DNA of 64,000 nucleotides, from NCBI RefSeq assembly GCF_055900595.2, contig NZ_CM148325.1. One strand, 5' to 3'. Under the pieces are notes generated by a model that had not been told where the DNA came from, ran no database searches, and saw nothing but the letters and a program-made list of their open reading frames with translations. Position 1 is the first letter of the stretch. Each line of letters starts with the position of its first letter. The position numbers were made by a program, and so were the translations under genes. Of this stretch, positions 11,796 through 53,493 are shown in pieces.

Positions 11796-13223
11796 TCATT
11801 TAAAGCTATTTCGTAATGCTTTGTAATTAAACACGTTATGGTTTGCATCAAAAACATCTGATTTCCCCTGCCAGCGGGTAATCACCTCCTCTGGTGTTTT
11901 CGGTTGAGCCGGTCTGGTTACGCCCATCCATGCATTAATCAGATAATCATTATACGCAGTGGAAAAAACACTATTCACCGTCTGGCGATCGACATGCTCT
12001 CCCCGTGTCGGGCTGTACCAGATAAACATCGGAACATGATAAGCCTGCTGGCTGGGTTTTATTCCACCATGAAAATAAACGTGTTCTTTTGTCGGGTCAT
12101 ACTCCAGACCGTGATCTGAAAAATACATGACGGATGCCCGACGCGTTTCCAGCATGGCGAAAACCTGTCCCAACAAACTGTCGGTATAATGAATGGAATT
12201 ATCGTAGCAGACTTCTTCTGTATCCAGTGGTTTAAACACGGCTTTATCTCTGGGCCAGTTACTGCAGACTGGCTCATGGCTGCCCGTCAGATGCAGAACA
12301 ATCAGTTTCCTGCACCCCGGATTACTGTTCAGTGCTTCAGCCAGGTGCGGGAGCAGCAACTCATCATAGCCTCTGACATAAATTCTGTTTCTGGCCCGCA
12401 TGGCGATACTGGCCACAGCCGTTCCGTTCTGTCGGAAAGCGGACTGCGCACTGAGCCACCAGGTATCGAACCCTGCCTGATTCGCCATGTTGATAATATT
12501 ATCGGGGTAATGGCGAACATCATGATGCAGCACAGTATCAGCAGATAATGCCAACGGTACCGCAAGGGCGGTATAAGGTGCCCCGCTGATTGCCTGAGTG
12601 AACAGTTTCAGTCGTGATTTCTGTTTCTGAAGCTCTGGTGTGGTTGGCCGCGAGTACCCGTAAATGGACATGTTATCAGTCCTTGCTGATTCACCGATGA
12701 TCAGTACAAATTCATCAATATTATTGTCTGTAATCATCAGCTCGTAGTGAGGTATGGTATCAGCAATCGTCATTAATCTCTGATGCTCCTTTGCGGCCAG
12801 TGCAAAATAGTTCAGATTAAAGAAAGGGGTATATGTGGCAAACCGGGAAGCGACTATGTAAGGATCAACTTCATTTATTTGATACTGTTTCTTCAACGCA
12901 AACTGAAAGGAAGAATATAACGTTACTGTAATTAACAATAAAAATGTAATTACCGTGACCTTTCCCGAAGGCAATGAGGACGTTTTATTTATTGCTGAAC
13001 AGACGAACAATAAAAAGAGGATAATAAACGCAATAACATAGACGACATATATCCTGAACATTCTTATTGCTTCATCAGGATCTGTCTGTAGGATACTGAT
13101 TGCAAAACCATCATTGAATGTGGTGCCAAATGTACACCATGAATACAGGCTGATACTGATATCTGCCGCGGTCAGTAATGTGAACGGAAAGGCCAGAATC
13201 AAACGCAACGTAAGCGATTTCAT
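11796..13223 (-). CDS. Phosphoethanolamine-transferase-like (sulfatase-superfamily) membrane protein, possibly degraded at the 3' end
   Basis: 475 aa; N-terminal TM segments then sulfatase-like core (LIIGESARTDNMSIYGY..., LHLTGSHEP, YFSDHGLEYD...); an extra short downstream frame suggests a frameshift. Confidence 0.55.
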   Translation of the reverse strand: MKSLTLRLILAFPFTLLTAADISISLYSWCTFGTTFNDGFAISILQTDPDEAIRMFRIYVVYVIAFIILFLLFVCSAINKTSSLPSGKVTVITFLLLITVTLYSSFQFALKKQYQINEVDPYIVASRFATYTPFFNLNYFALAAKEHQRLMTIADTIPHYELMITDNNIDEFVLIIGESARTDNMSIYGYSRPTTPELQKQKSRLKLFTQAISGAPYTALAVPLALSADTVLHHDVRHYPDNIINMANQAGFDTWWLSAQSAFRQNGTAVASIAMRARNRIYVRGYDELLLPHLAEALNSNPGCRKLIVLHLTGSHEPVCSNWPRDKAVFKPLDTEEVCYDNSIHYTDSLLGQVFAMLETRRASVMYFSDHGLEYDPTKEHVYFHGGIKPSQQAYHVPMFIWYSPTRGEHVDRQTVNSVFSTAYNDYLINAWMGVTRPAQPKTPEEVITRWQGKSDVFDANHNVFNYKALRNSFK

Positions 13224-14973: not shown

Positions 14974-16290
14974 ATGAAACCGTTACATTATACAGCTTCA
15001 GCACTGGTGCTCGGACTGACGTTAATGGGGAATGCACAGGCAGTGACGACCATTCCGTTCTGGCACTCTATGGAAGGGGAACTGGGTAAAGAGGTGAATT
15101 CTCTGGTCCAACGTTTTAACGCCGAAAACCCGGATTACAAAATTATACCGACTTATAAAGGCAACTACGAAGAGAGTTTAAGTGCGGGGATCGCAGCATT
15201 TCGTACCGGTAACGCTCCGGCTATTTTGCAGGTTTATGAAGTTGGCACCGCCACCATGATGGCGTCGAAAGCCATTAAACCGGTGTATGACGTGTTTAAA
15301 GAGGCGGGGATTAACTTTGATGAGTCGCAGTTTGTGCCGACGGTTTCAGGCTACTACTCCGACAGCAAAACGGGACACTTACTCTCCCAGCCGTTCAACA
15401 GCTCGACTCCTGTTCTCTATTACAACAAAGATGCTTTCAAGAAAGCAGGATTAGACCCAGAACAGCCGCCGAAAACCTGGCAGGATCTGGCGGACTATGC
15501 CGCGAAACTGAAAGCCTCCGGTATGAAGTGCGGCTACTCCAGCGGCTGGCAGGGCTGGATCCAACTGGAAAACTTTAGCGCCTGGAACGGTCTGCCGTTT
15601 GCCAGCAAAAACAACGGCTTTGACGGCACAGATGCGGTGCTGGAGTTCAACAAGCCGGAGCAGGTGAAACACATCGCCATGCTCGAAGAGATGAACAAGA
15701 AAGGCGATTTCAGCTACGTCGGGCGTAAGGATGAATCCACCGAGAAGTTCTATAACGGTGATTGCGCAATGACGACTGCCTCTTCTGGTTCTCTTGCCAG
15801 CATTCGCGAGTACGCCAAATTCAACTACGGCGTAGGCATGATGCCTTACGACGCTGACGCGAAAGATGCACCACAAAACGCCATTATCGGCGGAGCCAGC
15901 CTGTGGGTGATGCAGGGCAAAGATAAAGAAACGTATACCGGCGTGGCGAAGTTCCTCGACTTCCTCGCGAAGCCAGAAAATGCTGCCGAGTGGCATCAGA
16001 AAACCGGTTATCTGCCAATCACCAAAGCGGCGTATGACCTGACCCGTGAGCAGGGCTTTTATGAGAAAAACCCAGGGGCGGATATCGCGACACGTCAGAT
16101 GCTGAACAAACCGTCGTTACCGTTCACCAAAGGACTACGTCTGGGCAACATGCCGCAGATCAGAGCGATTGTGGATGAAGAGCTTGAGAGCGTGTGGACC
16201 GGTAAGAAGACGCCACAGCAGGCGCTGGATACCGCCGTTGAGCGTGGGAATCAGTTACTACGCCGCTTTGAGAAATCGACGAAGTCTTAA
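14974..16290 (+). CDS. ugpB: sn-glycerol-3-phosphate-binding periplasmic protein UgpB (orphan copy, no ugpAEC downstream)
   Basis: 438 aa, [41 protein letters not shown]... near-identical to E. coli UgpB as recalled. Confidence 0.9.
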
Positions 16291-17784: not shown

Positions 17785-19128
17785 ATGCACAACTCCAAAA
17801 TCCGGCTGGCTATACTGGTTGGCTGCATGGCTCTGAGCGCCAACCTGTGGGCCAAAGCGCAGCCGGTGCAGGCAACGCTGGCCGGGCATGCAATTCTGCC
17901 GGCAAAATCCGCTGTTTCAACACCGAAGGATGCGCCGGGCGATTTGCAACAGAGCGGCAAATACACCAGCGGCAAACGCGTCACCGAGCTGGGCAGCGTA
18001 GCGGGAAAATCCGCAGAACGCCTGACAGGACTCAGCCTGCCGATCAATGGTCAGCCGTTGCAGGGCCACTCAGGTATCAAACACATGCCCGACGGTACCT
18101 ATTGGGTGCTGACTGACAATGGCTTCGGCAGCAAAGCCAACTCCCCGGACGCCATGCTGTACCTCAACCAATACAAGATAGATTTCAAAGACGGCTCGGT
18201 AGTACCGCTGAAGACGCTGTTCCTGCATGATCCGGATAAAAAGGTGCCGTTCCACATCATCAACGAGAGCACCGAACTACGCTATCTGACCGGCAGCGAT
18301 TTTGATCCGGAAAGCTTCCAGTTTTCCGACGATGCCTTATGGATCGGTGATGAGTTCGGTCCTTACCTGATCAAGACCGACCTGAACGGCAAGGTGCTGG
18401 CGGTGTTCGACACAGAAGTGGACGGTAAGGTGGTTAAATCGCCGGACAACCCGACGCTGACTCTACCTAGCGCTCCGGACGGTAAGCTGAACTTCCAGGT
18501 GGCGCGTTCCAAAGGCTTTGAAGGCATGGCCATCTCGCCGGACGGCAGTAAGCTGTATCCGCTGCTGGAAGGGGCATTGTGGGACGGTGAGCAGTTCGAG
18601 AACGTTGGCGGAAAACGCTACCTGCGTGTGCTGGAGTTCGATGCCAAACAGCAGGCCTGGACTGGTCGCAGCTGGCAGTACGTGCTGGAAGACAACCAGA
18701 ACGCCATCGGCGACTTCAATATGATAGATGATACCCACGGACTGGTGATCGAGCGTGATAACGGCGAAGGCACGGCGGATAAAGCCTGCGTCGCCGGCGC
18801 GCCGACCAACAACTGCTTCAGTCAAGTAGCCAGGTTCAAACGGGTGTATAAAATTGCTTTCTCGGACACTAACGTCGGAAAACCTGTCGAAAAACTGGGC
18901 TATATTGACCTGATGAAGATTCAGGATCCGAACAAGCTGGCACGCAAGCCGCTGAACGACGGTGTGCTGACCTTCCCGTTCTTCACCATCGAGAACGTGG
19001 ATGTGGTTGACACTAACCACATCATCGTAGGCAACGATAATAACTTCCCGTTTTCCTCCAGCCGCTGGCCTAATATGGCGGATGACAACGAGTTTATTCT
19101 ACTGGATGTGAAGGATTTTCTGAAGTAG
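17785..19128 (+). CDS. Secreted phytase-like / esterase-like beta-propeller family protein (tentative)
   Basis: 447 aa with Sec signal peptide (MHNSKIRLAILVGCMALSANLWA); GFEGMAISPDGSKLYPLLEGAL-type blocks; family call is by eye only. Confidence 0.4.
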   Translation: MHNSKIRLAILVGCMALSANLWAKAQPVQATLAGHAILPAKSAVSTPKDAPGDLQQSGKYTSGKRVTELGSVAGKSAERLTGLSLPINGQPLQGHSGIKHMPDGTYWVLTDNGFGSKANSPDAMLYLNQYKIDFKDGSVVPLKTLFLHDPDKKVPFHIINESTELRYLTGSDFDPESFQFSDDALWIGDEFGPYLIKTDLNGKVLAVFDTEVDGKVVKSPDNPTLTLPSAPDGKLNFQVARSKGFEGMAISPDGSKLYPLLEGALWDGEQFENVGGKRYLRVLEFDAKQQAWTGRSWQYVLEDNQNAIGDFNMIDDTHGLVIERDNGEGTADKACVAGAPTNNCFSQVARFKRVYKIAFSDTNVGKPVEKLGYIDLMKIQDPNKLARKPLNDGVLTFPFFTIENVDVVDTNHIIVGNDNNFPFSSSRWPNMADDNEFILLDVKDFLK

Positions 19129-19284
19129 GGGGAAGAGCATCTTACGATACTCCTCGCTAATTTTAAAACGAACGGTGCTGAGCACCGTTTTTAATCACCT
19201 CGCCAGAACCTACCAGAATATGATGTTGGTTTATTATCACTGATTCATGGGGAGCACCCAGCGCTTCGGCGGTTTTTTATGTCT

Positions 19285-20109
19285 TTAAAGCAGTAGCGGT
19301 AGGGTCGCGCTGGCTGTTTTCTGGCTCACCTCGCTGTACTGGTCATCCAGCGCAATCAGCGATGTGGTGAGTAGCTCTACCAACAGCATCACTCCCACTT
19401 TGGCAGTCAGCGCGCCGGCACTCAAGGGTCCTTCCGGTTTGGCCGCGACCAGTTGAATATCACTCAGCGAAGCTAACGGACTGCGCGGTGTATTACTCAG
19501 CGCCAGTACACGCACACCTTGCTTACGCGCTAGTTTTACGACATGCAGCAGATCGCGCGTGGATCCAGAACTGGAAATCGCCACCACGAACGTGTTTTTA
19601 CTAAGTGTTGTGGCGTTCATGGCAGCACGATGCATATCGCTGAACAATTGTGCGGGTTTCCCCAGACGCAGGAGTTTATAATGTAAATACTCCCCCAGAA
19701 TGGCACTGGCTGCTACGCCATAAATCTGCACTGACTGAGCCTGATGCAGTGCAAGCGCGGCTGCTTCCAGCAAGGTTCTGTCGAGTAATTTTGCTGTGTC
19801 CTGTATTGCTTGCACGGATTCATTGACCACATTGTCAATCTCATCACCGCCGTGCTCTACAAACTGTACTTGTCGGAGATCGAGTGCCAGCGCCATTTTG
19901 AATTCGTTATAGCCCTTACACCCAAGCGTTCGGCACAGACGTGTGACGCTAGCCTCGCTGGTGCCGCTTTCACGCGCAAGTTCGGTAATCGTCAGGTAGA
20001 CAACTTTTGCCGGATCGCTAAGTACAAACTCTCCCAGCTTCTGTTGTGTTCGGCTATATCCATCAACGCTCTGGCGCAATCTCAGCAGCAGGTTTTCATT
20101 TTCTGACAT
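19285..20109 (-). CDS. RpiR-family transcriptional regulator (HTH + SIS domain)
   Basis: 274 aa; N-terminal HTH (LTITELARESGTSEASVTRLCRTLGCKGYNEFK) and SIS-like core; divergent from the PTS gene. Confidence 0.8.
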   Translation of the reverse strand: MSENENLLLRLRQSVDGYSRTQQKLGEFVLSDPAKVVYLTITELARESGTSEASVTRLCRTLGCKGYNEFKMALALDLRQVQFVEHGGDEIDNVVNESVQAIQDTAKLLDRTLLEAAALALHQAQSVQIYGVAASAILGEYLHYKLLRLGKPAQLFSDMHRAAMNATTLSKNTFVVAISSSGSTRDLLHVVKLARKQGVRVLALSNTPRSPLASLSDIQLVAAKPEGPLSAGALTAKVGVMLLVELLTTSLIALDDQYSEVSQKTASATLPLLL

Positions 20110-20274
20110 GTAAAATCCTTAATGCGTTTATCTGTTGATAGTGTGACGGAAAGGAGGGGATTGATGCCAGACATTTTAAAAAAGTATGATCGACTTCTTA
20201 GATTTTGATGGTGATTTTTATTTATAAGAATAATTATAGTAAAAATTTTCATCAAAAATCGAGGAGATGATAAA

Positions 20275-21831
20275 ATGATGCAAATGTTTAGCGGCGCTTC
20301 ATCGGGGGGATGGTTTGAAAAAGCGCAGCGGTTCGGAAAATCCTTCATGCTGCCGATTGCGGTATTGCCCGCAGCAGGGCTGTTATTAGGGATTGGTGGC
20401 GCGTTGTCAAATCCAAACACGTTGACGGCTTATCCGTTTTTAGATGCCGACTGGTTGCAGGCAATATTCACAATCATGACCAGCGCAGGTTCTATTGTGT
20501 TTGCCAACCTGTCGGTACTCTTTGCAGTCGGCGTCGCCGTGGGGCTGGCGAAATCGGATAAAGGCACTGCCGGGCTTGCGTCATTGCTGGCGTTTCTGGT
20601 GATGAATGCCACCATCAACGCCTTATTAACGCTCAACGGAACGCTGGCGCACAAGAACCCCGCTTCAGTTGGCCAGGGGATGACGCTTGGTATTCAGACA
20701 CTGGAAACTGGTGTGTTTGGTGGGGTGGTGATTGGTCTCGTCACCTGCACTTTACATAGCCGTTTCAATAAAGTCTCACTACCTCAGTTTCTCGGTTTTT
20801 TTAGTGGTTCTCGTTTTGTACCCATTATCAGCTCCCTTGCCGCGATAGTAGTGGGTGCGGTTATGACGGTGGTGTGGCCGCATTTCCAGAAACTCATTTT
20901 TGGACTGGGCGACCTGGTGGATGCGACGGGCTATCTGGGGACGCTGTTGTACGGCTTCATCCTGCGTATGCTTGGTCCACTGGGTTTACACCATATCTTT
21001 TATTTGCCGTTCTGGACGACGGCGCTGGGCGGCAGTGAAATCGTCAACGGCCAGTTGGTTGAAGGTACGCAGCGGATTTTCTTTGCCCAACTTGCCGATC
21101 CGAATACGCAGCAGTTCTACGCGGGTACCGCTCGCTTTATGTCCGGGCGCTTTATCACCATGATGTTTGGCCTGCTTGGCGCATGTCTGGCAATGTACCA
21201 TACTGCAAAGCCGGAGAATAGAAAGGTTGTCGCCGGACTACTTTTGTCAGCAGCCCTGACCTCTTTCCTGACGGGAATCACTGAGCCTGTTGAGTTCTCC
21301 TTCCTGTTTGTCGCGCCCGTATTATACGTAATTCACGCCTTCTTCGATGGTCTGGCGTTTATGGTCGCCCATATTTTACATATCACTATTGGGCAAACCT
21401 TTTCGGGCGGGCTTATCGATTTCCTTCTCTTCGGCGTGTTGCAGGGGGAAGCTAAAACAAACTGGATGTATGTCCCCATAGTGGGAATACCGTGGTTCTT
21501 CCTTTACTACTTTACTTTCCGCTATTTGATTAACCGCTTTGGCTGGCTGACGCCGGGGCGTGAGAACGTAACCCAGGTTGAATCCGGCCAGCCTCAGAGT
21601 GAACGCGCAGCGGCAGTCATTGCCGGGCTGGGAGGCAAAGAGAATCTGGAAGAGGTGGACTGTTGCGCCACGCGCCTGCGCGTGACGGTTAAAGAGAGCA
21701 GTAAGGTAGATGAAGCTGCGCTGAAAGTGGCCGGAGCGCGTGGCGTGATTATTCGCGGCAACGGCGTTCAGGTGATTTATGGCCCTCATGTCACCATCAT
21801 TAAAAACGAAGTCGAAGAGATTTTATCGTAA
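20275..21831 (+). CDS. PTS EIICB component, glucose/N-acetylglucosamine superfamily
   Basis: 518 aa; EIIC membrane domain plus C-terminal EIIB (...[12 protein letters not shown]...). Confidence 0.8.
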
Positions 21832-22520
21832 TGAAAACTGTACTGGATTCCCTGAAAGGTAAATTAATCGTCTCCTGTCAGGCTCTGGAAAATGAGCCTC
21901 TACATAGTCCGTTTATTATGTCACGTATGGCGCTGGCGGCAGCACAAGGTGGTGCTGCAGGTATCCGTGCCAACAGCGTGGCGGATATTAGTGCTATCAA
22001 AGAGATTGTCTCCCTTCCGATGATAGGGATTATCAAACGCGATTACCCTGGCAGTGAGGTGTTTATCACGGCCACTCTCCGGGAAGTGGATGAGCTGATG
22101 ACCGTTGAGCCGGAAATTATTGCCCTGGATGCTACTGCGCGCCCGCGCCCTAGTGGTCAGACGCTGGAAGAACTGGTCACGCAGATCCGCGCTCGCTACC
22201 CGTCCATACTTCTGATGGCAGATATAGCAACAGTAGAAGAGGCAGTGACAGCTGAACGTCTGGGTTTTGACTGTGTGGGCACTACGCTCTACGGCTATAC
22301 CGCAGAAACTGCTAGGCATGTGCTGGCGGAAAATGACTGTGGATTCTTACGTGAGGTCCTGAAAGCGGTCAGCGTTCCGGTCGTGGCGGAAGGGAATGTC
22401 GACACCCCGGAGTGCGCCGCACGTTGCCTGACATTAGGCGCTCATACCGTGGTGGTTGGGGGGGCAATCACTCGTCCGCAGCAGATAACGACACGCTTTA
22501 TCGCAGCGATCGCCTCGTAA
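21831..22520 (+). CDS. N-acetylmannosamine-6-phosphate 2-epimerase (NanE-like)
   Basis: 229 aa, [48 protein letters not shown]...; start overlaps PTS stop (operon). Confidence 0.8.
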
Positions 22521-22548
22521 AGCACCGATGAGGCATGATATTTTGCTG

Positions 22549-22576
22549 GGAATAAGCGATAATTATCGCTTATTCC
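22549..22576. repeat. Perfect 28-bp palindrome just downstream of the nanE-like gene
   Basis: ggaataagcgataattatcgcttattcc; no T-run follows. Confidence 0.6.
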
Positions 22577-22589
22577 ATATTGAGAGTGC

Positions 22590-22900
22590 TATGCAGTACC
22601 CGATTAGCTCGGCAGGGGCTAAATCATGGTTATCCGGTCATGCTGCGCATGGATAATGGCTCGGAATTTAACACTCTCGCGCTGACACTGGCTGAATGGG
22701 CATAGATACTCGCAGTAAAACGAGAGCTCAGCCAGCCTGGTCGAGTTACCCCTGATAGAGGAATACTGATCCTACCCCATGTAATGTGGACACAAGCCTA
22801 AGTGATGTTCTGGTTTTCAAATTGTTCCGTACTGAGACCACCACACCAGCTGTGCCCTAACAGGCACAGTTTCAGCACTCCTAAGCAACCGTAAAATGGC
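22590..22900 (+). pseudogene. Transposase integrase-core (rve) fragment, IS remnant
   Basis: ...GYPVMLRMDNGSEFNTLALTLAEWA* then shifted frames; DNGSEF block typical of rve-domain transposases. Confidence 0.3.
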
Positions 22901-23024: not shown

Positions 23025-23363
23025 ATGAAAAAATACTCTTCTCCCGTCCTTGCACTCATTCTTGTTAGCAGCAGTATGGTATCCTCCGCTGCCACAAAAG
23101 AAATCTCAAAAACAGCTTATGTCTGTAATGGAAATAAGACAATGGAGGTGGTCTATATCAACACCACTGCTGGGAACTCATATGCAGTGATTAATCAGAT
23201 GGATGAGATGATACCTATGCAGCTTATGAAAATGGCCTCCGGAGCCAATTACGAAGCCATCAATAAAAGATACTCATATAAACTGTACACAAAAGGGAAA
23301 AAAGCCAATCTGGTGGAAGGGAATGATAATCCTGTCTTAAGCAACTGTTCATCGGCCGAATGA
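23025..23363 (+). CDS. MliC/PliC-family lysozyme inhibitor-like periplasmic protein
   Basis: 112 aa with signal peptide; ...YVCNGNKTMEVVY...MASGANYEAI...YKLYTKGKKANL...NCS pattern resembles MliC. Confidence 0.55.
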   Translation: MKKYSSPVLALILVSSSMVSSAATKEISKTAYVCNGNKTMEVVYINTTAGNSYAVINQMDEMIPMQLMKMASGANYEAINKRYSYKLYTKGKKANLVEGNDNPVLSNCSSAE

Positions 23364-43905: not shown

Positions 43906-45122
43906 GTTGGAGTCATTACCCTCCACCTTTATGGTGCATGACAAAATCAACTACAACATTGATGAACCGAGCAGTTCCGGTAAAACATTATCTATTGCGT
44001 TTGTTAATCAGCGCCAATACCGTGCTCAACAATGCTTTATGTCGGTAAAATTGGTAGACAATGCAGATGGTTCAACCATGCTGGATAAACGTTATGTCAT
44101 CACTAACGGTAATCAGCTGGCGATTCAAAATGATTTACTGGAGAGTTTATCAAAAGCGTTAAACCAACCGTGGCCACAACGAATGCAGGAGATGCTCCAG
44201 CAAATTTTGCCTCATCGTGGTGCGTTATTAACTAATTTTTATCAGGCACATGATTATTTACTGCATGGCGATGATAAATCATTGAACCGTGCCAGTGAAT
44301 TACTAGGTGAGATTGTTCAATCATCCCCCGAATTTACCTACGCGAGAGCAGAAAAAGCATTAGTTGATATCGTGCGCCATTCTCAACATCCTTTAGATGA
44401 AAAACAATTAGCAGCACTGAATACAGAAATAGATAACATTGTTACACTGCCGGAATTGAACAACCTGTCCATTATATATCAAATAAAAGCGGTCAGTGCT
44501 CTGGTAAAAGGTAAAACAGATGAGTCTTACCAGGCGATAAATACTGGCATTGATCTTGAAATGTCCTGGCTAAATTATGTGTTGCTTGGCAAGGTTTATG
44601 AAATGAAGGGGATGAACCGGGAAGCAGCTGATGCATATCTCACCGCCTTTAATTTACGCCCAGGGGCAAACACCCTTTACTGGATTGAAAATGGTATATT
44701 CCAGACTTCTGTTCCTTATGTTGTACCTTATCTCGACAAATTTCTCGCCTCAGAATAAGTGACTCCCGGGTTGACTCATGCTCGGGAATATTTGTTGTTG
44801 ATTTTTTGTATGTTATTGTTGGTATAATATGTTGCGGCAATTTATTTGCCGCATAATTTTTATCACATAAATTTAACCATGGAATATTCTGCAATCTATT
44901 GTAAACATTGAATGTTTATCTTTTCATGATATCAACTTGCGATCCTGATGTGTTAATAAAAAACCTCAAGTTCTCACTTACAGAAACTTTTGTGTTATTT
45001 CACCTAATCTTTAGGATTAATCTTTTTTTTTGAGTAATCTTGTCGCCAGTTTGGTCTGGTCAGTAAATAGTTACGCATCATGACCCGGACTCCAAATTCA
45101 AAAATGAAATTAGGAGAAGAGC

Positions 45123-46457
45123 ATGAGTTCTGCCAAGAAGATCGGGCTATTTGCCTGTACCGGTGTTGTTGCCGGTAATATGATGGGGAGCGGCATTGCA
45201 TTATTGCCTGCGAACCTTGCAAGTATCGGTGGTATTGCTATCTGGGGTTGGATTATCTCTATTATTGGTGCAATGTCGTTGGCTTATGTATATGCCCGAC
45301 TGGCAACAAAAAACCCGCAACAAGGTGGCCCAATTGCTTATGCCGGAGAAATTTCTCCTGCATTTGGTTTTCAGACAGGTGTTCTTTATTACCATGCTAA
45401 CTGGATTGGTAACCTGGCGATTGGTATTACCGCTGTATCTTATCTTTCCACCTTCTTCCCTGTATTAAATGATCCTGTTCCGGCGGGTATCGCTTGTATT
45501 GCTATCGTCTGGGTATTTACCTTTGTAAATATGCTCGGCGGTACCTGGGTAAGCCGTTTAACCACTATTGGTCTGGTGCTGGTTCTTATTCCTGTAGTTA
45601 TGACTGCTATTGTTGGCTGGCATTGGTTTGATGCTGCAACTTATGCTGCTAACTGGAATACCGCAGGTACTACTGATGGTCATGCGATCATTAAAAGTAT
45701 TCTGCTCTGCCTGTGGGCCTTCGTGGGTGTTGAATCCGCAGCGGTAAGTACTGGTATGGTTAAAAACCCGAAACGTACCGTTCCGCTGGCAACCATGCTG
45801 GGTACTGGTTTAGCAGGTATTGTTTACATCGCTGCGACTCAGGTGCTTTCCGGTATGTATCCGTCTTCTGTAATGGCAGGCTCCGGTGCTCCGTTTGCAA
45901 TCAGTGCTTCTACTATCCTGGGTAACTGGGCTGCGCCGATGGTTTCTGCATTCACCGCTTTTGCGTGCCTGACTTCTCTGGGCTCCTGGATGATGCTGGT
46001 AGGTCAGGCAGGTGTGCGTGCCGCTAACGACGGTAACTTCCCGAAAGTTTATGGTGAAGTCGACAGCAACGGTATTCCGAAAAAAGGTCTGCTGCTGGCT
46101 GCAGTGAAAATGACTGCCCTGATGATCCTCATCACTCTGATGAACTCTGCCGGTGGTAAAGCATCTGACCTGTTCGGTGAACTGACCGGTATCGCAGTAC
46201 TGCTGACTATGCTGCCGTACTTCTACTCTTGCGTTGACCTGATTCGTTTTGAAGGCGTTAACATCCGCAACTTTGTCAGCCTGATCTGCTCTGTACTGGG
46301 TTGCGTGTTCTGCTTCATCGCGCTAATGGGCGCAAGCTCCTTCGAGCTGGCAGGTACCTTCATCGTCAGCCTGATTATCCTGATGTTCTACGCTCGCAAA
46401 ATGCACGAGCGCCAGAGCCACTCAATGGATAACCACACAGCGTCTAACGCACATTAA
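45123..46457 (+). CDS. cadB: Lysine/cadaverine antiporter CadB
   Basis: 444 aa, MSSAKKIGLFACTGVVAGNMMGSGIALLPANLASIGGIAIWGWIISIIGAMSLAYVYARLATKNPQQGGPIAYAGE... Confidence 0.95.
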   Translation: MSSAKKIGLFACTGVVAGNMMGSGIALLPANLASIGGIAIWGWIISIIGAMSLAYVYARLATKNPQQGGPIAYAGEISPAFGFQTGVLYYHANWIGNLAIGITAVSYLSTFFPVLNDPVPAGIACIAIVWVFTFVNMLGGTWVSRLTTIGLVLVLIPVVMTAIVGWHWFDAATYAANWNTAGTTDGHAIIKSILLCLWAFVGVESAAVSTGMVKNPKRTVPLATMLGTGLAGIVYIAATQVLSGMYPSSVMAGSGAPFAISASTILGNWAAPMVSAFTAFACLTSLGSWMMLVGQAGVRAANDGNFPKVYGEVDSNGIPKKGLLLAAVKMTALMILITLMNSAGGKASDLFGELTGIAVLLTMLPYFYSCVDLIRFEGVNIRNFVSLICSVLGCVFCFIALMGASSFELAGTFIVSLIILMFYARKMHERQSHSMDNHTASNAH

Positions 46458-46536
46458 TTAAAAGTATTTTCCGAGGCTCCTCCTTTCATTTTGTCCCATG
46501 TGTTGGGAGGGGCCTTTTTTACCTGGAGATATGACT

Positions 46537-48684
46537 ATGAACGTTATTGCAATATTGAATCACATGGGGGTTTATTTTAAAGAAGAACCCATCCGTGAAC
46601 TTCATCGCGCGCTTGAACGTCTGAACTTCCAGATTGTTTACCCGAATGACCGTGACGACTTATTAAAACTGATCGAAAACAATGCGCGTCTGTGCGGTGT
46701 TATTTTTGACTGGGATAAATATAATCTCGAGCTGTGCGAAGAAATTAGCAAAATGAACGAGAACCTGCCGTTGTACGCGTTCGCTAATACGTATTCCACT
46801 CTCGATGTCAGCCTGAATGACCTGCGTTTACAGATTAGCTTCTTTGAATATGCGCTGGGTGCTGCTGATGATATTGCTAACAAGATCAAGCAGACCACTG
46901 ACGAATATATCAACACTATTCTGCCTCCGCTGACCAAAGCACTGTTTAAATATGTTCGTGAAGGTAAATATACTTTCTGTACTCCTGGTCACATGGGCGG
47001 TACTGCATTCCAGAAAAGCCCGGTAGGTAGCCTGTTCTATGATTTCTTTGGTCCGAACACCATGAAATCTGATATTTCCATTTCAGTATCTGAACTGGGT
47101 TCTCTGCTGGATCACAGTGGTCCACACAAAGAAGCAGAACAGTATATCGCTCGCGTATTTAACGCAGACCGCAGCTACATGGTGACCAACGGTACTTCCA
47201 CTGCGAACAAAATTGTTGGTATGTACTCTGCTCCGGCAGGCAGCACCATTCTGATTGACCGTAACTGCCACAAATCGCTGACCCACCTGATGATGATGAG
47301 CGATGTTACGCCAATCTATTTCCGCCCGACCCGTAACGCTTACGGTATTCTTGGTGGTATCCCACAGAGTGAATTCCAGCACGCTACCATTGCTAAGCGC
47401 GTAAAAGAAACACCAAACGCGACCTGGCCGGTACATGCCGTAATTACTAACTCTACCTATGATGGCCTGCTGTACAACACCGACTTCATTAAGAAAACGC
47501 TGGATGTGAAATCCATCCACTTTGACTCCGCGTGGGTGCCTTACACCAACTTCTCACCGATTTACGAAGGTAAATGCGGTATGAGCGGTGGCCGTGTAGA
47601 AGGGAAAGTGATTTACGAAACCCAGTCTACTCACAAACTGCTGGCGGCGTTCTCTCAGGCTTCCATGATCCACGTTAAAGGTGATGTAAACGAAGAAACC
47701 TTTAACGAAGCCTACATGATGCACACCACCACTTCTCCGCACTACGGTATCGTGGCGTCCACTGAAACCGCTGCGGCGATGATGAAAGGTAATGCTGGTA
47801 AGCGTCTGATCAACGGTTCCATTGAACGTGCGATCAAGTTCCGTAAAGAGATCAAACGCCTGAGAACGGAATCTGATGGCTGGTTCTTTGATGTATGGCA
47901 GCCGGATCATATCGATACCACTGAATGCTGGCCGCTGCGTTCTGACAGCTCCTGGCACGGCTTCAAGAACATCGACAATGAGCACATGTATCTTGACCCG
48001 ATTAAAGTCACCCTGCTGACTCCGGGGATGGAAAAAGACGGCACCATGAGCGACTTCGGTATTCCGGCCAGCATCGTGGCGAAATACCTCGACGAACATG
48101 GCATCGTTGTTGAGAAAACCGGTCCGTATAACCTGCTGTTCCTGTTCAGCATCGGTATCGATAAGACCAAAGCACTGAGCCTGCTGCGTGCTCTGACTGA
48201 CTTCAAACGTGCGTTCGACCTGAACCTGCGTGTGAAAAACATGCTGCCGTCTCTGTATCGTGAAGATCCTGAATTCTATGAAAACATGCGTATTCAGGAA
48301 CTGGCTCAGAATATCCACAAACTGATTGTTCACCACAATCTGCCGGATCTGATGTATCGCGCATTTGAAGTGCTGCCGACTATGGTAATGACTCCATATG
48401 CTGCGTTCCAGAAAGAGCTGCACGGTATGACCGAAGAAGTTTACCTCGACGAAATGGTAGGTCGTATTAACGCCAATATGATCCTTCCGTATCCGCCGGG
48501 AGTTCCTCTGGTAATGCCGGGTGAAATGATCACCGAAGAAAGCCGTCCGGTGCTGGAGTTCCTGCAGATGCTGTGTGAAATCGGCGCTCACTATCCGGGC
48601 TTTGAAACCGATATTCACGGTGCATACCGTCAGGCTGATGGTCGCTATACCGTTAAGGTATTGAAAGACGAAAGCAAAAAATAA
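46537..48684 (+). CDS. cadA: Inducible lysine decarboxylase CadA
   Basis: 715 aa from MNVIAILNHMGVYFKEEPIRELHRALERLNFQIVYPNDRDD...; the ORF-track start 46498 is an upstream in-frame extension. Confidence 0.95.
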   Translation: MNVIAILNHMGVYFKEEPIRELHRALERLNFQIVYPNDRDDLLKLIENNARLCGVIFDWDKYNLELCEEISKMNENLPLYAFANTYSTLDVSLNDLRLQISFFEYALGAADDIANKIKQTTDEYINTILPPLTKALFKYVREGKYTFCTPGHMGGTAFQKSPVGSLFYDFFGPNTMKSDISISVSELGSLLDHSGPHKEAEQYIARVFNADRSYMVTNGTSTANKIVGMYSAPAGSTILIDRNCHKSLTHLMMMSDVTPIYFRPTRNAYGILGGIPQSEFQHATIAKRVKETPNATWPVHAVITNSTYDGLLYNTDFIKKTLDVKSIHFDSAWVPYTNFSPIYEGKCGMSGGRVEGKVIYETQSTHKLLAAFSQASMIHVKGDVNEETFNEAYMMHTTTSPHYGIVASTETAAAMMKGNAGKRLINGSIERAIKFRKEIKRLRTESDGWFFDVWQPDHIDTTECWPLRSDSSWHGFKNIDNEHMYLDPIKVTLLTPGMEKDGTMSDFGIPASIVAKYLDEHGIVVEKTGPYNLLFLFSIGIDKTKALSLLRALTDFKRAFDLNLRVKNMLPSLYREDPEFYENMRIQELAQNIHKLIVHHNLPDLMYRAFEVLPTMVMTPYAAFQKELHGMTEEVYLDEMVGRINANMILPYPPGVPLVMPGEMITEESRPVLEFLQMLCEIGAHYPGFETDIHGAYRQADGRYTVKVLKDESKK

Positions 48685-48697
48685 TTAGCTCGTACAA

Positions 48698-48726
48698 GGG
48701 AAGTGGCTTGCCACTTCCCTTTTTTG
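48698..48726 (+). terminator. Intrinsic terminator after cadA
   Basis: gggaagtggc-ttg-ccacttccc followed by TTTTTT. Confidence 0.6.
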
Positions 48727-48742
48727 CTCATAAGGAGAACAC

Positions 48743-50200
48743 ATGAAAACACCCTCACAGCCGCGCGCGATATACTATATCGTGGCGATCCAAATCTGGG
48801 AGTACTTCAGTTTTTACGGCATGCGTGCCTTACTCATTCTCTATCTCACCCATCAGCTTGGTTTTGATGATAACCATGCCATCAGCCTGTTCAGCGCATA
48901 TGCATCTCTGGTTTACGTTACCCCTATTCTCGGCGGCTGGCTTGCCGACCGCCTGCTCGGCAATCGTACTGCGGTAATTGCCGGCGCGCTGTTAATGACC
49001 CTTGGCCATGTAGTGCTGGGCATTGATACAAATTCAACCTTTAGCCTGTATCTGGCGCTGGCAATCATTATTTGTGGCTACGGTTTATTCAAATCAAACA
49101 TCAGCTGTTTGCTTGGCGAGCTCTACGACGAGAACGATCATCGACGTGATGGCGGTTTTTCGCTGCTGTATGCTGCGGGCAATATCGGTTCTATCGCAGC
49201 CCCCATCGCCTGCGGCCTGGCTGCTCAGTGGTATGGATGGCATGTTGGCTTTGCCCTTGCGGGTGGCGGCATGTTTATCGGTTTGTTGATTTTCTTAAGC
49301 GGTCATCGTCATTTCCAGTCAACGCGTAGTATGGATAAAAAAGCGCTCACTCGCGTGAAATTTGCCTTACCGGTATGGAGCTGGTTAGTGGTGATGCTCT
49401 GTTTAGCCCCAGTATTTTTTACCCTACTGCTGGAGAACGACTGGTCCGGATATTTGCTGGCGATCGTTTGCCTTATTGCTGCACAAATCATTGCCCGCAT
49501 GATGATCAAATACCCCGAACACCGTCGTGCTCTTTGGCAAATTGTATTGTTGATGTTTGTCGGGACGTTGTTCTGGGTACTGGCACAACAGGGCGGCAGT
49601 ACCATCAGTTTGTTTATCGATCGCTTTGTGAATCGTCAGGCATTCAATATTGAAGTACCTACTGCACTATTCCAGTCAGTGAACGCAATTGCGGTGATGC
49701 TCGCTGGGGTTGTTCTGGCCTGGCTGGCGTCGCCAGAAAGCCACGGCAACTCAACATTGCGCGTCTGGCTGAAGTTTGCCTTTGGCTTACTGCTGATGGC
49801 TTGTGGCTTTATGTTGCTGGCATTTGATGCCCGACATGCAGCGGCTGACGGTCAAGCGTCAATGGGCGTGATGATATCCGGGCTGGCGCTAATGGGCTTT
49901 GCCGAACTCTTTATTGACCCGGTGGCGATTGCGCAAATCACGCGTCTGAAAATGTCTGGCGTATTAACCGGGATTTATATGCTGGCAACAGGCGCGGTCG
50001 CCAACTGGCTGGCAGGCGTAGTGGCACAGCAGACGACAGAGTCGCAAATTAGCGGTATGGCAATTGCAGCTTACCAGCGATTCTTTTCTCAGATGGGAGA
50101 GTGGACGTTGGCTTGTGTCGCGATCATCGTCGTATTGGCCTTTGCTGCCCGTTTTCTGTTTAGCACGCCGACGAATATGATACAGGAGAGCAACGATTAA
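48743..50200 (+). CDS. dtpC: Dipeptide/tripeptide permease DtpC (YjdL)
   Basis: 485 aa POT-family transporter, [50 protein letters not shown]... Confidence 0.9.
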
Positions 50201-50436
50201 CTGTCGTAAAAACAATTGGTTATGAATAAATTAACTTTCAGTTTATCACACTAGTAAATTGAGATTAATAAGTCATTTAAACCATTTTTATGGTTATTTA
50301 TTAGTGATATCAACTTGAGGTAAGCGTTAGTTTCGATAAGATAAACTGAGTTATTAATAGTCGAGGCAGATAATACAGTGTACCGATCTGTCTCTTTATC
50401 TACGCTAAATTGAAAGCTGGATTTAGAGGAACCAAA

Positions 50437-51954
50437 ATGTCTGAACAAGAAACACGGGGAGCCAATGAGGCTATTGATTTTAACGATGAACTGAGAAATC
50501 GCCGCGAAAAACTGGCGGCACTGCGTCAGCAAGGTGTGGCGTTTCCTAATGATTTTCGCCGCGACCATACCTCTGACCAGTTGCACGAAGAGTTTGATGC
50601 GAAGGATAACCAGGAACTGGAATCCTTAAACATTGAAGTCTCGGTTGCTGGCCGAATGATGACCCGTCGTATCATGGGGAAAGCCTCCTTTGTAACGTTG
50701 CAGGATGTCGGTGGCCGTATTCAACTGTACGTTGCAAGAGATAGCCTGCCAGAAGGTGTTTATAATGATCAGTTTAAAAAATGGGACCTCGGCGACATTA
50801 TCGGTGCCCGCGGTACGCTGTTTAAGACGCAAACTGGTGAGCTTTCCATTCACTGTACTGAGTTACGCCTGCTGACTAAGGCACTGCGTCCATTGCCGGA
50901 TAAATTCCATGGCTTACAGGATCAGGAAGTCCGTTATCGTCAACGTTATCTGGACCTCATCGCTAACGATAAATCCCGTCAAACGTTTGTTGTCCGTTCA
51001 AAAATTCTGGCCGCTATCCGTCAGTTCATGGTCGCTCGCGGTTTTATGGAAGTAGAAACCCCAATGATGCAGGTAATTCCAGGTGGGGCATCTGCTCGCC
51101 CGTTTATTACCCATCATAACGCTCTGGATTTAGATATGTACCTGCGTATCGCGCCGGAGCTGTATCTGAAACGTCTGGTTGTAGGCGGTTTTGAACGGGT
51201 ATTCGAAATCAACCGTAACTTCCGTAATGAAGGTATTTCTGTTCGCCATAATCCTGAGTTCACAATGATGGAACTCTACATGGCATATGCGGATTACCAT
51301 GATTTGATTGAACTGACGGAGTCACTGTTCCGCACCCTGGCACAAGAGGTACTGGGTACCACTAAAGTCACTTATGGCGAGCATGTGTTTGATTTCGGCA
51401 AACCGTTTGAAAAACTCACCATGCGCGAAGCAATCAAAAAATATCGTCCAGAAACCGATATGGCGGATCTGGATAATTTTGATGCTGCTAAAGCATTAGC
51501 TGAATCTATCGGAATTACGGTAGAGAAAAGCTGGGGGCTGGGACGCATTGTCACGGAGATCTTTGATGAAGTGGCAGAAGCACATCTGATTCAGCCAACC
51601 TTTATCACGGAATATCCGGCAGAAGTGTCACCGCTGGCGCGCCGTAATGATGTTAACCCGGAAATCACCGACCGTTTTGAATTCTTCATCGGTGGTCGTG
51701 AAATCGGTAATGGTTTTAGCGAATTAAACGACGCAGAAGATCAGGCGGAACGTTTCCAGGAACAGGTTAACGCTAAAGCTGCAGGTGACGACGAAGCCAT
51801 GTTCTATGACGAAGATTACGTGACTGCGCTGGAATATGGTCTGCCGCCAACCGCGGGTCTGGGTATTGGTATCGACCGAATGATTATGCTGTTTACTAAC
51901 AGCCATACTATTCGCGACGTTATTCTCTTCCCGGCGATGCGTCCACAGAAATAA
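50437..51954 (+). CDS. lysU: Lysine--tRNA ligase, heat-inducible (LysU)
   Basis: [56 protein letters not shown]...; class II aaRS motifs. Confidence 0.95.
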
Positions 51955-52072
51955 ATTTCATTTTAACGAACGAAGCAGTCAGACGACTGCTTCGTTCGTC
52001 GTTCCACAAATCCAGTTTCGAGGAGAGACGCTTCGTTTCAAGATAACCAGCGGGTCCACTCAACTACAGCTC

Positions 52073-52246
52073 CTAAAAGAGAGAAAAAAGCAATGCCACA
52101 GGCAGACTCATTGGCCAGGTTATTCCGACCAGAAATGCACTAAGTAAACGAATATGTGTTTTCTCATGTGAGATAAACCAGATAATGACAAAGGATATGT
52201 TCACACCAATCACATAAAAAATTAATATTTTAGAGAATAGTGCCAT
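52073..52246 (-). CDS. ghoT: GhoT type V toxin (small membrane peptide), below the 60-aa ORF-track cutoff
   Basis: Minus translation MALFSKILIFYVIGVNISFVIIWFISHEKTHIRLLSAFLVGITWPMSLPVALLFSLF*; directly downstream of ghoS. Confidence 0.85.
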   Translation of the reverse strand: MALFSKILIFYVIGVNISFVIIWFISHEKTHIRLLSAFLVGITWPMSLPVALLFSLF

Positions 52247-52273
52247 TTTTTATGTTCTTCTTATCCTTCCTGA

Positions 52274-52570
52274 CTACTTGTAAAACTGACGGAAATAGTC
52301 ATCAACTGTCATAATGTTGAGGTCAAAATCAATATCCGGTAAGTCTAAGCATTTGAGCCTGATTAAATCTTCGATTTCACTTGCGGCTAACGATGTCGTT
52401 ATTGCGAAGGAATTTTCATTCAATTGTCGTGGTATCCCATATTCATCAGCCACGATAGAGGAGAAATTCATATCATACATCAATGATCTTAACCTTAAGA
52501 ACACTGAGGAATAAGATGATGGATAATCAAAAGAAACAACATAAGTATTGAACTTGTTTTTACCTTCCAT
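52274..52570 (-). CDS. ghoS: GhoS type V antitoxin (endoribonuclease)
   Basis: MEGKNKFNTYVVSFDYPSSYSSVFLRLRSLMYDMNFSSIVADEYGIPRQLNENSFAITTSLAASEIEDLIRLKCLDLPDIDFDLNIMTVDDYFRQFYK. Confidence 0.85.
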   Translation of the reverse strand: MEGKNKFNTYVVSFDYPSSYSSVFLRLRSLMYDMNFSSIVADEYGIPRQLNENSFAITTSLAASEIEDLIRLKCLDLPDIDFDLNIMTVDDYFRQFYK

Positions 52571-52798
52571 AATATGACTCCTATCAATATTAAACGATCT
52601 GGGGCCGCACAACTTATTAACCCCGATCGATGATTCTCATATAGGAGATATTCTTTTTTTTTTGCTCAGTAAAGGGGATGACTTGGGACAAGAAAACGCT
52701 CTCTCTGACCATTCTTTGTTCATCCCCCTACCCTTCAGATTCTCTCCTGCATCACACCGCGGAGAGCATGAAAAATATCGTGACTCTGTACTCTCCCA

Positions 52799-53071
52799 TC
52801 AACTGCGAATATCATCATACTCACGCGTTTTATCAAATTCGTGTTTCGCAAATGGACATAATGGGATAATTTTTCGTTTTTCCCGACGCATTTTTTCCAC
52901 GACTTTCGCAACCAGCTGTTTACCAATCCCCTGCCCTTTCAGGCTTTCATCGACATCGGTATGTTCGATAATCGCTAAATTCTTGCCGGTCGGCACAAAG
53001 ACAATTTCAGCAATTTGCTTGCCCTGTTCGTCATTAATGTAAAATTTATTGTGGCCTTCGCGTATTTCCAT
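52799..53071 (-). CDS. yjdJ: YjdJ GNAT-family acetyltransferase-like protein
   Basis: 90 aa, [54 protein letters not shown]... Confidence 0.8.
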
Positions 53072-53082
53072 TTTACCCTCGC

Positions 53083-53313
53083 TTATTTATGACGGTATTT
53101 CAGCGCGCCGCTCGGGCACATATCAATCACTTTCATTACAGTGGTGACATCAACTTCATCCGGCATGATCCACGGCTTACGTTTGAGGTTAAATAACCTG
53201 CCGTTGCCACGTACGCAATTGCCAGAATGCTGACATATTGCAGTGTTGAAATAGACATCGATCTTTTCGCCGGTATAACAGCGATAACCCCCGTCCAGTA
53301 GCGCCTGATCCAT
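53083..53313 (-). CDS. yjdI: YjdI (small Cys-rich protein)
   Basis: 76 aa, [54 protein letters not shown]... Confidence 0.8.
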
Positions 53314-53493
53314 GACCTTCCCTCTCTCATCAGTATGGTTTTCACTATAAGCATAGCCCCGGAATCTTCATACAGCACTGGCAGTTTCCGTTGCCAGAGT
53401 CTCTTCCCCTATATAGCCAATCATTCTTACTCCCTTTGAATTACCCGCCTCATCAGAGATAATGCTTAAGAAATTTGTCACACAAGGAAGCTG

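Follow-up and report, generated by a model that had tools for sequence, protein, structure and literature searches.

Which sugar enters Escherichia coli through a three-gene unit that stands on a genomic island in an arrangement foreign to the nan and mur loci of strain K-12, and where does the unit come from? It begins at position 19285 of a 64,000-nucleotide stretch of contig NZ_CM148325.1 (RefSeq assembly GCF_055900595.2), called the window below. A first-pass annotation had described a divergently transcribed RpiR regulator, an EIICB permease of the phosphotransferase system (PTS) from the glucose superfamily and a homolog of N-acetylmannosamine-6-phosphate (ManNAc-6-P) 2-epimerase, NanE. 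All three open reading frames (ORFs) were found where it had placed them, and Pfam and NCBIfam agree with the assignments:

19285–20109, minus strand: RpiR/MurR-family regulator, NanR-like, 274 aa; called from the ORF and the Pfam domains HTH_6 and SIS, the latter binding sugar phosphates
20275–21831, plus strand: PTS Glc-family EIICB permease, 518 aa, with PTS_EIIC and PTS_EIIB and without an EIIA domain
21831–22520, plus strand: NanE, ManNAc-6-P 2-epimerase of the Firmicute type, 229 aa, its start overlapping the EIICB stop

The overlap is also confirmed, since the TAA of the permease gene (21829–21831) and the ATG of nanE (21831–21833) share one A in the sequence TAATG. The regulator, EIICB and NanE form an intact three-gene sugar-uptake cassette, which is additional to the gene set of K-12. 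With a probability of roughly 0.6, this cassette is a self-contained, horizontally acquired system for the use of free N-acetylmannosamine (ManNAc). The broader assignment, an amino-sugar module feeding N-acetylglucosamine-6-phosphate (GlcNAc-6-P) into NagA and NagB, is highly probable.

The first-pass annotation held that the layout is neither the nan nor the mur arrangement of K-12, and this is borne out. According to the ORF list, genes for the NanA lyase, NanT and the NanK kinase are present neither in the module nor adjoining it, so the unit lacks the canonical nanATEK-yhcH organization with its GntR-type NanR. The alternative named at that stage was a murPQ-type operon for the recycling of N-acetylmuramic acid in which the epimerase was misassigned. 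The regulator does belong to the MurR/RpiR family, and its divergent layout with a PTS EIICB superficially resembles murR-murQP. However, MurP could be aligned with the island EIICB by blastp only over residues 441–504, the 64-residue EIIB domain; the MurP model NF007152 scored 36 bits against a cutoff of 516; and no ORF for the MurQ etherase is found in the module. The regulator is 26% identical to MurR of K-12 versus 44% to NanR of Vibrio vulnificus, and the membership of NanE in its family is unambiguous. Because MurP matches over EIIB only, MurQ is missing and identity to MurR is 26%, orthology to murPQ is ruled out by sequence comparison, and practically no likelihood is left for this alternative. 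Identities of the island EIICB to proteins of K-12 (MG1655) are 43% for MalX, 43% for PtsG and 35% for NagE.

The epimerase scores 316.4 bits with NCBIfam PRK01130 (cutoff 189) and 233.8 bits with PF04131 (cutoff 27; E 1.2e-69). The active site of Staphylococcus aureus NanE consists of Gln11, Arg40, Lys63, Asp124, Glu180 and Arg208 (PMC8482478), and all six residues are kept in the island protein as Q17, R46, K69, D131, E187 and R215. The signature motifs of the family, x-P-x-I-G-I-x-K-[KR] and V-G-[SG]-A-x-T-R (PMC8482478), are present as PMIGIIKR (63–70) and VGGAITR (209–215), and the acetamide-contacting Tyr156 and the phosphate-binding Gly/Asn residues are retained as well. The protein can be assigned to the NanE family with a complete set of catalytic residues, and epimerase activity is predicted for it. 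Its nearest solved structures are those of S. aureus (1y0e/6vva, ~1e-78), Fusobacterium and Clostridium perfringens (E-values from 1e-79 to 1e-75); the Salmonella and Vibrio structures are weaker matches (1e-38 to 1e-31, with 1e-38 for Salmonella). Since the island NanE is 41% identical to NanE of K-12, and a K-12-type nanE is found in 5409 of 5426 complete E. coli genomes, the island gene represents an extra, xenologous copy.

A scan of one genome per species for this EIICB yielded 80 loci. NanE adjoins EIICB in 76 of them, the regulator does so in 69 and both do in 67; several of the exceptions end at contig edges. The association of regulator, EIICB and NanE is far beyond chance, and the three genes are a conserved unit. 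Conservation of the NanE-EIICB pair, together with the presence of a NanE additional to that of K-12, supports the accessory amino-sugar uptake module proposed in the first-pass annotation. Identity of EIICB to the island protein is 96% in Citrobacter, 84–86% in Cronobacter, about 80% in Serratia and Pantoea, and 74–76% in Aeromonas, Selenomonas and Bacillales. Serratia and Aeromonas share the rpiR<>EIICB-nanE layout of the window, the order in Peribacillus is EIICB-nanE-rpiR, and Selenomonas has nagB-nagA-EIICB-nanE-DUF386(yhcH)-ROK-rpiR. In Negativicutes generally, the EIICB-NanE pair is accompanied by nagB, nagA, a ROK kinase and DUF386/YhcH, in one case also by nanA and nanQ.

The regulator contains PF01418 (HTH_6, 6e-19) and PF01380 (SIS, 3e-19). 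Its best match in the Protein Data Bank is 4IVN (E 1.4e-68), with RccR as the runner-up (5e-32). The 4IVN entry is V. vulnificus NanR with ManNAc-6-P (PMC12713135, PMC11014249); this protein represses the nan genes, and ManNAc-6-P releases the repression (PMC12713135). The two regulators are identical at 120 of 271 residues (44%), and the phosphate loop SSSGST is conserved in the island protein, which can be read as a NanR-type RpiR regulator with a predicted response to ManNAc-6-P. Alignment of the 165-bp divergent intergenic region from 58 loci revealed three candidate sites:

20185–20200, plus strand: weak CRP-like site TATGA-N6-TCTTA, recognized in the alignment by comparison with the CRP consensus
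20206–20223, strand not applicable: operator-like box 1, TGATGGTGATTTTTATTT, palindromic, consensus TGrTGATAATTTTCAttt, with private changes of the window allele at 20213 and 20219
20237–20254, strand not applicable: operator-like box 2, TAGTAAAAATTTTCATCA, palindromic, consensus TGGTAAAAATTTTCATCA, with a private G>A change at 20238

The boxes are 31 bp apart from center to center, and box 2 ends about 20 bp 5' of the EIICB ATG. Both are conserved from Citrobacter to Aeromonas. A degenerate pattern derived from them occurs in 62 loci at this position only, and in the 64-kb window it has four matches, three of them at the two boxes, versus 0.44 expected. The boxes are likely the operator of the divergent regulator; two adjacent sites fit the descriptions of MurR and V. 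vulnificus NanR (PMC12713135). The CRP-like site upstream of box 1, weak in E. coli and Citrobacter, has better half-sites at the same alignment position in Pantoea (AGTGA-N6-TCACA) and in Cedecea and Aeromonas (TGTGA-N6-TCAC), which suggests that the promoter could be under catabolite control. A consensus promoter scan of the intergenic region gave no more sites than were found in shuffled sequences. The three private substitutions of the window allele fall at near-invariant box positions, and the one at 20238 converts TATGGT to TATAGT, a better −10-like hexamer. The window allele may be derepressed or have a stronger promoter. The SE15 allele, by contrast, has boxes that agree with the consensus. 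The allele that is identical to the window across the module is common among poultry and urinary isolates.

The permease contains PF02378 (PTS_EIIC, 1e-88) and PF00367 (PTS_EIIB, 2e-15). It retains GITEP at 334–338 and the phosphorylation residue Cys464 within CATRLR, and is on these grounds a Glc-family EIICB. No EIIA domain is present in the protein and no EIIA gene in the cassette. With the glucose-specific equivalog TIGR02002, it scores 587.3 bits, below the cutoff of 591.8. In the cryo-EM structure of E. coli PtsG, glucose OH-2/OH-3 are bound by E202, R203 and K257, and OH-3, OH-4 and OH-6 by T297 and E298; H211 and H212 are in contact with OH-6 and the ring, and N215 and F337 with OH-1 (PMC11393339). 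Compared with PtsG, the ligand-site residues R, H, H, T, E, F and S are kept in the island EIICB and in all members of its clade; residues binding OH-3, OH-4, OH-6 and the ring are thereby retained in the island protein. Replaced are E202 (Leu230), N215 (Tyr243) and K257 (Met296). NagE has Asn at the position of PtsG E202, hereafter position 202. Since the TIGR02002 cutoff is missed and a ligand position for OH-2/OH-3 is changed, the protein was not filed as a glucose permease. Its RefSeq label, 'maltose/glucose-specific', is probably wrong. Tyr243 and Met296 were considered as signs of an N-acetyl pocket, NagE having Met as well, and were dropped: the pair is often seen in PtsG-like EIICBA proteins that have GlcT-type antiterminators, and it occurs also in PtsG-like representatives from Gram-positive bacteria, so only position 202 was kept as informative.

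Position 202 was surveyed in a search of 1.84 billion cluster representatives, 150 of which were tabulated. Leu or Met is rare there, and all five representatives that have it are linked to NanE, namely the island protein and four others at 46–53% identity, of which one has its own EIIA domain and one lies beside an esterase. The representatives with Glu or Lys that were examined are EIICBA genes followed by a PRD antiterminator, without NanE. Identity among the NanE-linked EIICBs is at least 68% from E. coli to Selenomonadaceae and Bacillales, and at most 54% to any other cluster representative. One of the distant Leu-202 proteins (48% identical; genes at 632–8473 of metagenome contig L103) is encoded beside NanE, a sulfatase, a radical-SAM/SPASM maturase, a GntR regulator and a separate EIIA, a cluster that may point to a related PTS pathway for a sulfated N-acetylhexosamine.

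The most likely substrate of the island permease is ManNAc. This assignment is based on the coupling to NanE with its complete catalytic residues, the NanR-type regulator, the linkage to nagA, nagB, nanK and yhcH in Negativicutes, position 202 and a precedent from S. aureus, where GlcC, an EIIBC of the Glc family lacking EIIA, is the sole ManNAc importer (PMC4916373). In the proposed pathway, EIICB would import ManNAc and phosphorylate it to ManNAc-6-P, with the phosphoryl group supplied by the general PTS of the host and EIIA-Glc (Crr). EIIA-Glc is proposed as the donor because the cassette has no EIIA of its own. For EIIA-less Glc-family permeases such as PtsG and MalX, the host EIIA-Glc is the expected donor. 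Such a supply is discussed in the literature (PMC3302838). The translationally coupled NanE would then epimerize ManNAc-6-P to GlcNAc-6-P, and the core enzymes NagA and NagB would convert the latter to fructose-6-P, acetate and ammonia. The regulator would bind the two boxes and repress the EIICB gene until ManNAc-6-P builds up. The substrate, the inducer, the EIIA partner and the role of the regulator as repressor or activator are in this scheme those that we infer from the genes and sites described.

Several points weigh against this assignment. RpiR-family NanR proteins may act as activators, as in Streptococcus pneumoniae and Listeria, so repression in the cassette is an assumption. The correlation between position 202 and NanE is based on eight representatives. 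Deletion of the NanE-operon PTS of Listeria left growth on ManNAc unimpaired (PMC10667646), and no transport, growth or binding data for the enterobacterial cassette were found in the searchable literature. Other points favor an alternative with the same architecture, in which the permease takes up glucosamine (GlcN), GlcNAc or glucose, NanE serves mainly to process the ManNAc-6-P that NanA and NanK produce from sialic acid, and both are linked by the regulator to the level of ManNAc-6-P. The sole mutant study of a NanE-adjacent Glc-family EIIBC concerns SP1684 of S. pneumoniae, which was assigned to glucosamine from a growth defect on GlcN (PMC3302838); SP1684 is induced by ManNAc (PMC3509027). 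GlcC of S. aureus imports glucose besides ManNAc (PMC4916373), and the island EIICB lies just 4.5 bits below the glucose-specific cutoff. Cronobacter and C. freundii have nanE at a distance from nanATK, among neighbors left undescribed, and this separate gene is apparently their only nanE, serving nanATK (PMC3716653). Yet the delivery of GlcN-6-P, GlcNAc-6-P or Glc-6-P needs no tight coupling to NanE, and the coupling is kept across phyla. Linkage to NanE goes along with the hydrophobic residue at the ligand position for OH-2/OH-3. E. coli carriers, moreover, already have a nanE in nanATEK, so the island copy is required only where the product is one that the nan operon, uninduced by sialic acid, could not process. 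Uptake of another hexose or amino sugar is rather unlikely, though it has the support just described.

The chemistry and regulatory logic of the ManNAc pathway proposed for the cassette are those of known modules of the ManNAc/sialic acid branch. V. vulnificus NanR, the nearest solved relative of the regulator and one with which it shares the phosphate loop, likewise serves a divergent promoter with two adjacent binding regions (predicted ones in the island). The Vibrio nan regulon includes a TRAP sialic acid transporter, nanA, nanK and nagA, whereas the island has only the PTS permease and NanE. S. aureus, which provides the nearest solved NanE, presumably carries nanE in a separate nan locus, away from glcC. 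Its GlcC (SAUSA300_0236), like the island EIICB a Glc-family permease lacking EIIA, is needed for growth on ManNAc (PMC4916373). In Salmonella enterica, the accessory locus STM1127–STM1131 is induced by ManNAc and has a MurR/RpiR-type repressor and, like the island, a second NanE (NanE2); it differs in having a sodium-solute symporter instead of a PTS, and additionally a mutarotase, a porin and the small RNA ManS (PMC11745405). NanE2 matches the island NanE far less well (1e-38). The loci lmo2795-nanE of Listeria monocytogenes and SP1684–SP1685 of S. pneumoniae combine an RpiR regulator, PTS components and NanE as the island does. The EIIBC of S. pneumoniae has no EIIA, stands beside nanE and is ManNAc-induced (PMC3509027), and NanE of Listeria is needed for growth on ManNAc (PMC10667646). 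Both loci differ from the island in their activator-type regulators and larger size with extra enzymes, as well as in the dispensability of the Listeria PTS on ManNAc and the assignment of SP1684 to GlcN. The route of E. coli itself proceeds through ManXYZ and then NanE (PMC10667646). It is the same downstream of uptake, from ManNAc-6-P via GlcNAc-6-P to fructose-6-P, and differs in the Man-family PTS, the GntR-type NanR and the 41% identical NanE. Plumbridge and Vimr reportedly found in 1999 that sialic acid, but not ManNAc, induces the nan operon.

The origin of the cassette could be traced through its flanks, where the following features were recognized:

19131–19255, strand not assigned: 3'-end remnant of an IS4-family transposase gene on the left flank, ~125 bp, common to three chromosomal E. 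coli alleles
22591–22608, plus strand: 5' stub of queE, ATGCAGTACCCGATTAGC, six codons reading MQYPIS (MQYPIN in native queE and in K-12)
22610–22705, plus strand: C-terminal fragment of an IS3-family DDE transposase, ending in ...GYPVMLRMDNGSEFNTLALTLAEWA or ...MLRMDNGSEFNTLALTLAEWA before the stop, matching an annotated IS3/DDE-type integrase

In 35 of the 80 species loci, the module lies between eno and queE, and carriers with this placement include Citrobacter, Lelliottia, Enterobacter, Raoultella, Leclercia, Cedecea, Dryocola, Ewingella, Rahnella and Hafnia. K-12 is missing the module, and ygcG and yqcG occupy its eno-queE interval. The nearest chromosomal copy is found in a metagenome-assembled genome of Citrobacter from the human gut (93.0% nucleotide identity over 3.3 kb; proteins up to 96%). 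Homology to the Citrobacter chromosome, in the form of remains of the eno terminator, resumes at about 19255–19284; on the right, queE homology ends at 22609/22610, where the IS3-family fragment begins. The E. coli module came from a Citrobacter-like chromosome. Its queE stub is a molecular relic of the donor locus, eno-[module]-queE, in which queE was cut after codon 6 on mobilization of the segment. The chromosomal eno-[rpiR<>EIICB-nanE]-queE locus, known from annotation only, is orthologous to the island unit and is alike in gene order, TAATG overlap, boxes and nanE-queE spacer. In contrast to it, the E. coli unit is excised, with queE cut at codon 6 and remnants of IS4 and IS3 at its flanks, is situated on islands or IncF plasmids, and carries a NanE that is a second copy rather than the only one.

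Of the 5426 complete E. coli genomes, 643 (~12%) contain the island module, on islands littered with insertion sequences (IS) or on IncF plasmids. A single contiguous match covering at least 80% of the query (window 19100–22700) was obtained in 468 genomes, 13 of them with 100% identity. E. coli alleles differ from the window by 3.6–6.5% of nucleotides. The left remnant was assigned to the IS4 family because its matches fall under transposase genes of that family, and in one allele (L010) its annotation is that of an IS4 pseudogene, the end of which is 48 bp away from rpiR. Three E. coli alleles are 4–6% apart, as far as Citrobacter species are among themselves, and yet share the same IS4-family left flank (L009 5715–5885; L010 5577–5885). 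The pattern implies that either an old cassette with IS flanks has been circulating outside E. coli, or a single capture was followed by recombination. The hen-derived IncF plasmid copy differs at its left junction and therefore represents a separate capture. In strain EC1515, a module 100% identical to that of the window lies 17 kb from pheU. Searches of the literature for this E. coli module, by RefSeq protein accession and by combining pheU, extraintestinal pathogenic E. coli (ExPEC) or ST131 with the epimerase, retrieved no paper.

The IS debris and pseudogenes all around the module, together with the three private box substitutions of the window allele, could mark it as a decaying passenger of a mosaic island that has no current function in E. 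coli. Against this, the three ORFs are full length in every allele examined (window, SE15-type, 51489-type and plasmid copies) and in Citrobacter, and pairwise ratios of nonsynonymous to synonymous substitution (dN/dS) are 0.04–0.23. For the regulator gene, intact in all alleles, the ratio is 0.08–0.18. The genes of the module are under purifying selection. The 468 genomes with extended matches, the 13 identical copies among them and the independent recruitment to IncF plasmids also speak against decay, which leaves the passenger explanation very improbable.

Downstream of nanE, two overlapping features were found:

22534–22563, plus strand: vestigial queE promoter with the −35-like CATGAT and −10 GATAAT; the promoter-like site is at 22535–22563
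22549–22576, strand not applicable: perfect palindrome of 28 bp, GGAATAAGCGATAA|TTATCGCTTATTCC, 14+14 without a spacer

The palindrome was thought at first to end the unit and to abut the transposase fragment. It is indeed perfect and is unique in the window, and none of 100 shuffles reproduced such a palindrome; it does not adjoin the transposase fragment, however, as it is followed by 14 nt with a Shine-Dalgarno-like GAGAG and by the queE stub, and the IS3 fragment begins only from ~22610. The region downstream of nanE was aligned for the window, three other E. coli alleles, Citrobacter and K-12 (palindrome compared at L009 9150–9180, L011 9270–9300, L021 and related loci). The left arm and center of the palindrome fall on a conserved sequence that precedes queE: CATGAT, followed after 16–17 nt by TGCGATAAT, is present 5' of queE in every enterobacterial genome examined (at least 35 species), including K-12 without the module. 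The extended −10 is TGCGATAAT or TGCAATAAT in chromosomal copies and K-12, and is mutated to AGCGATAAT in the window. Complementarity of the right arm is 4–12 of 15 positions in chromosomal copies versus 14–15 of 15 in three mobilized E. coli copies.

A functional element, such as a terminator, a hairpin stabilizing the EIICB-nanE transcript or a protein-binding site, could be suspected here. As RNA, the palindrome forms a stable hairpin of 12 bp, 28 nt 3' of the nanE stop (region −28.4 kcal/mol, z −3.9), and three of the four mobile copies examined reached a perfect or near-perfect palindrome by different multi-base changes on both arms. However, the left arm consists of the extended −10 that is conserved at queE and occurs in K-12 without the module. 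The terminator scan did not call the palindrome: its stem is A+T-rich and is followed by AUAUUGAGAG, without a U-tract, hence it is not a canonical intrinsic terminator. There was no Rfam match, and as the right arm is non-complementary in most chromosomal copies, no conserved structure has been selected. A terminator, an IS end and a conserved RNA were rejected on account of the missing U-tract, the lack of an Rfam match, the uniqueness in the window and the mostly non-complementary right arm of chromosomal copies; any functional role for the palindrome is quite unlikely. The palindrome is best interpreted, from the alignment, as a vestige of the queE promoter region that was 'perfected' in mobile copies, and neither as the module terminus nor as a terminator. 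Its perfection could be due to quasipalindrome correction or to selection of a hairpin after the loss of queE; correction by template switching is a plausible mutational route, proposed by inference.

The left part of the surrounding island encodes a 1274-aa serine-protease autotransporter of the SPATE type (1118–4942, minus strand; Peptidase_S6 3.8e-92 with a PIC/HAP1 beta-solenoid), by which it is marked as a pathogenicity island of the type found in ExPEC and avian pathogenic E. coli (APEC). An AbgT-family transporter (5254–6813, minus), an MFS transporter (10042–11334) and a sulfatase (11796–13223, minus) follow. EC1515 differs in its left part, where a raffinose-like cluster and pheU are located instead. 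An orphan ugpB-like substrate-binding protein (14974–16290) stands beside a degraded IS110 and is followed by a phytase-like esterase (17785–19128; PF13449, 5e-61); the last ~30 bp of the esterase gene and ~100 bp of its downstream flank are also found on plasmids of E. coli and E. fergusonii that lack the PTS module. To the right, an MliC-family (lysozyme-inhibitor-like) lipoprotein gene is intact at 23025–23363, and its EC1515 copy is split by ISEc12. A gene for a sigma-factor-like helix-turn-helix protein (23748–24203, minus) lies beside a YadA-like trimeric autotransporter (C-terminal part 24265–24798, minus; region 23748–25100), upstream of which internal repeats and an opposite-strand ORF with a repeated 23-residue unit (24658–25065) are seen. 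The right third of the window, ~45000–64000, consists of core chromosome (cadCBA, lysine-tRNA ligase, dcuS, fumB), which places the right boundary of the island inside the window. No tRNA gene was found in the 64 kb.

A wider hypothesis can be put forward tentatively, at somewhat less than even odds. NanE-linked EIICBs would constitute a distinct, ManNAc-dedicated subfamily marked by a hydrophobic residue at position 202, which was transferred between Firmicutes and Enterobacterales and then carried by IS elements into ExPEC/APEC-type islands and IncF plasmids; it would provide ManNAc-inducible growth in the gut independent of sialic acid, and the window allele would be partly constitutive through its box changes.

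Current understanding is not overturned by these results; their most useful by-products are the evidence at the donor junction, the operator with its two boxes and the marker at position 202. The locus is a clean case of a core metabolic unit of neighboring genera re-imported into E. coli with the donor junction still readable. Leu in place of Glu at a glucose-ligand position could serve as a specificity marker in the annotation of Glc-family permeases now labeled 'maltose/glucose-specific'. ManNAc is released in the gut upon cleavage of sialic acid, and its use by K-12 depends on the low-specificity mannose PTS and the sialic acid-responsive nan operon. Urinary or poultry isolates account for many of the carriers that match best, and conjugative IncF plasmids bear the cassette as well. 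If the proposed function is true, a compact, self-regulated ManNAc cassette in about one-eighth of complete E. coli genomes would be a nutrient trait that widens the niche of its carriers.

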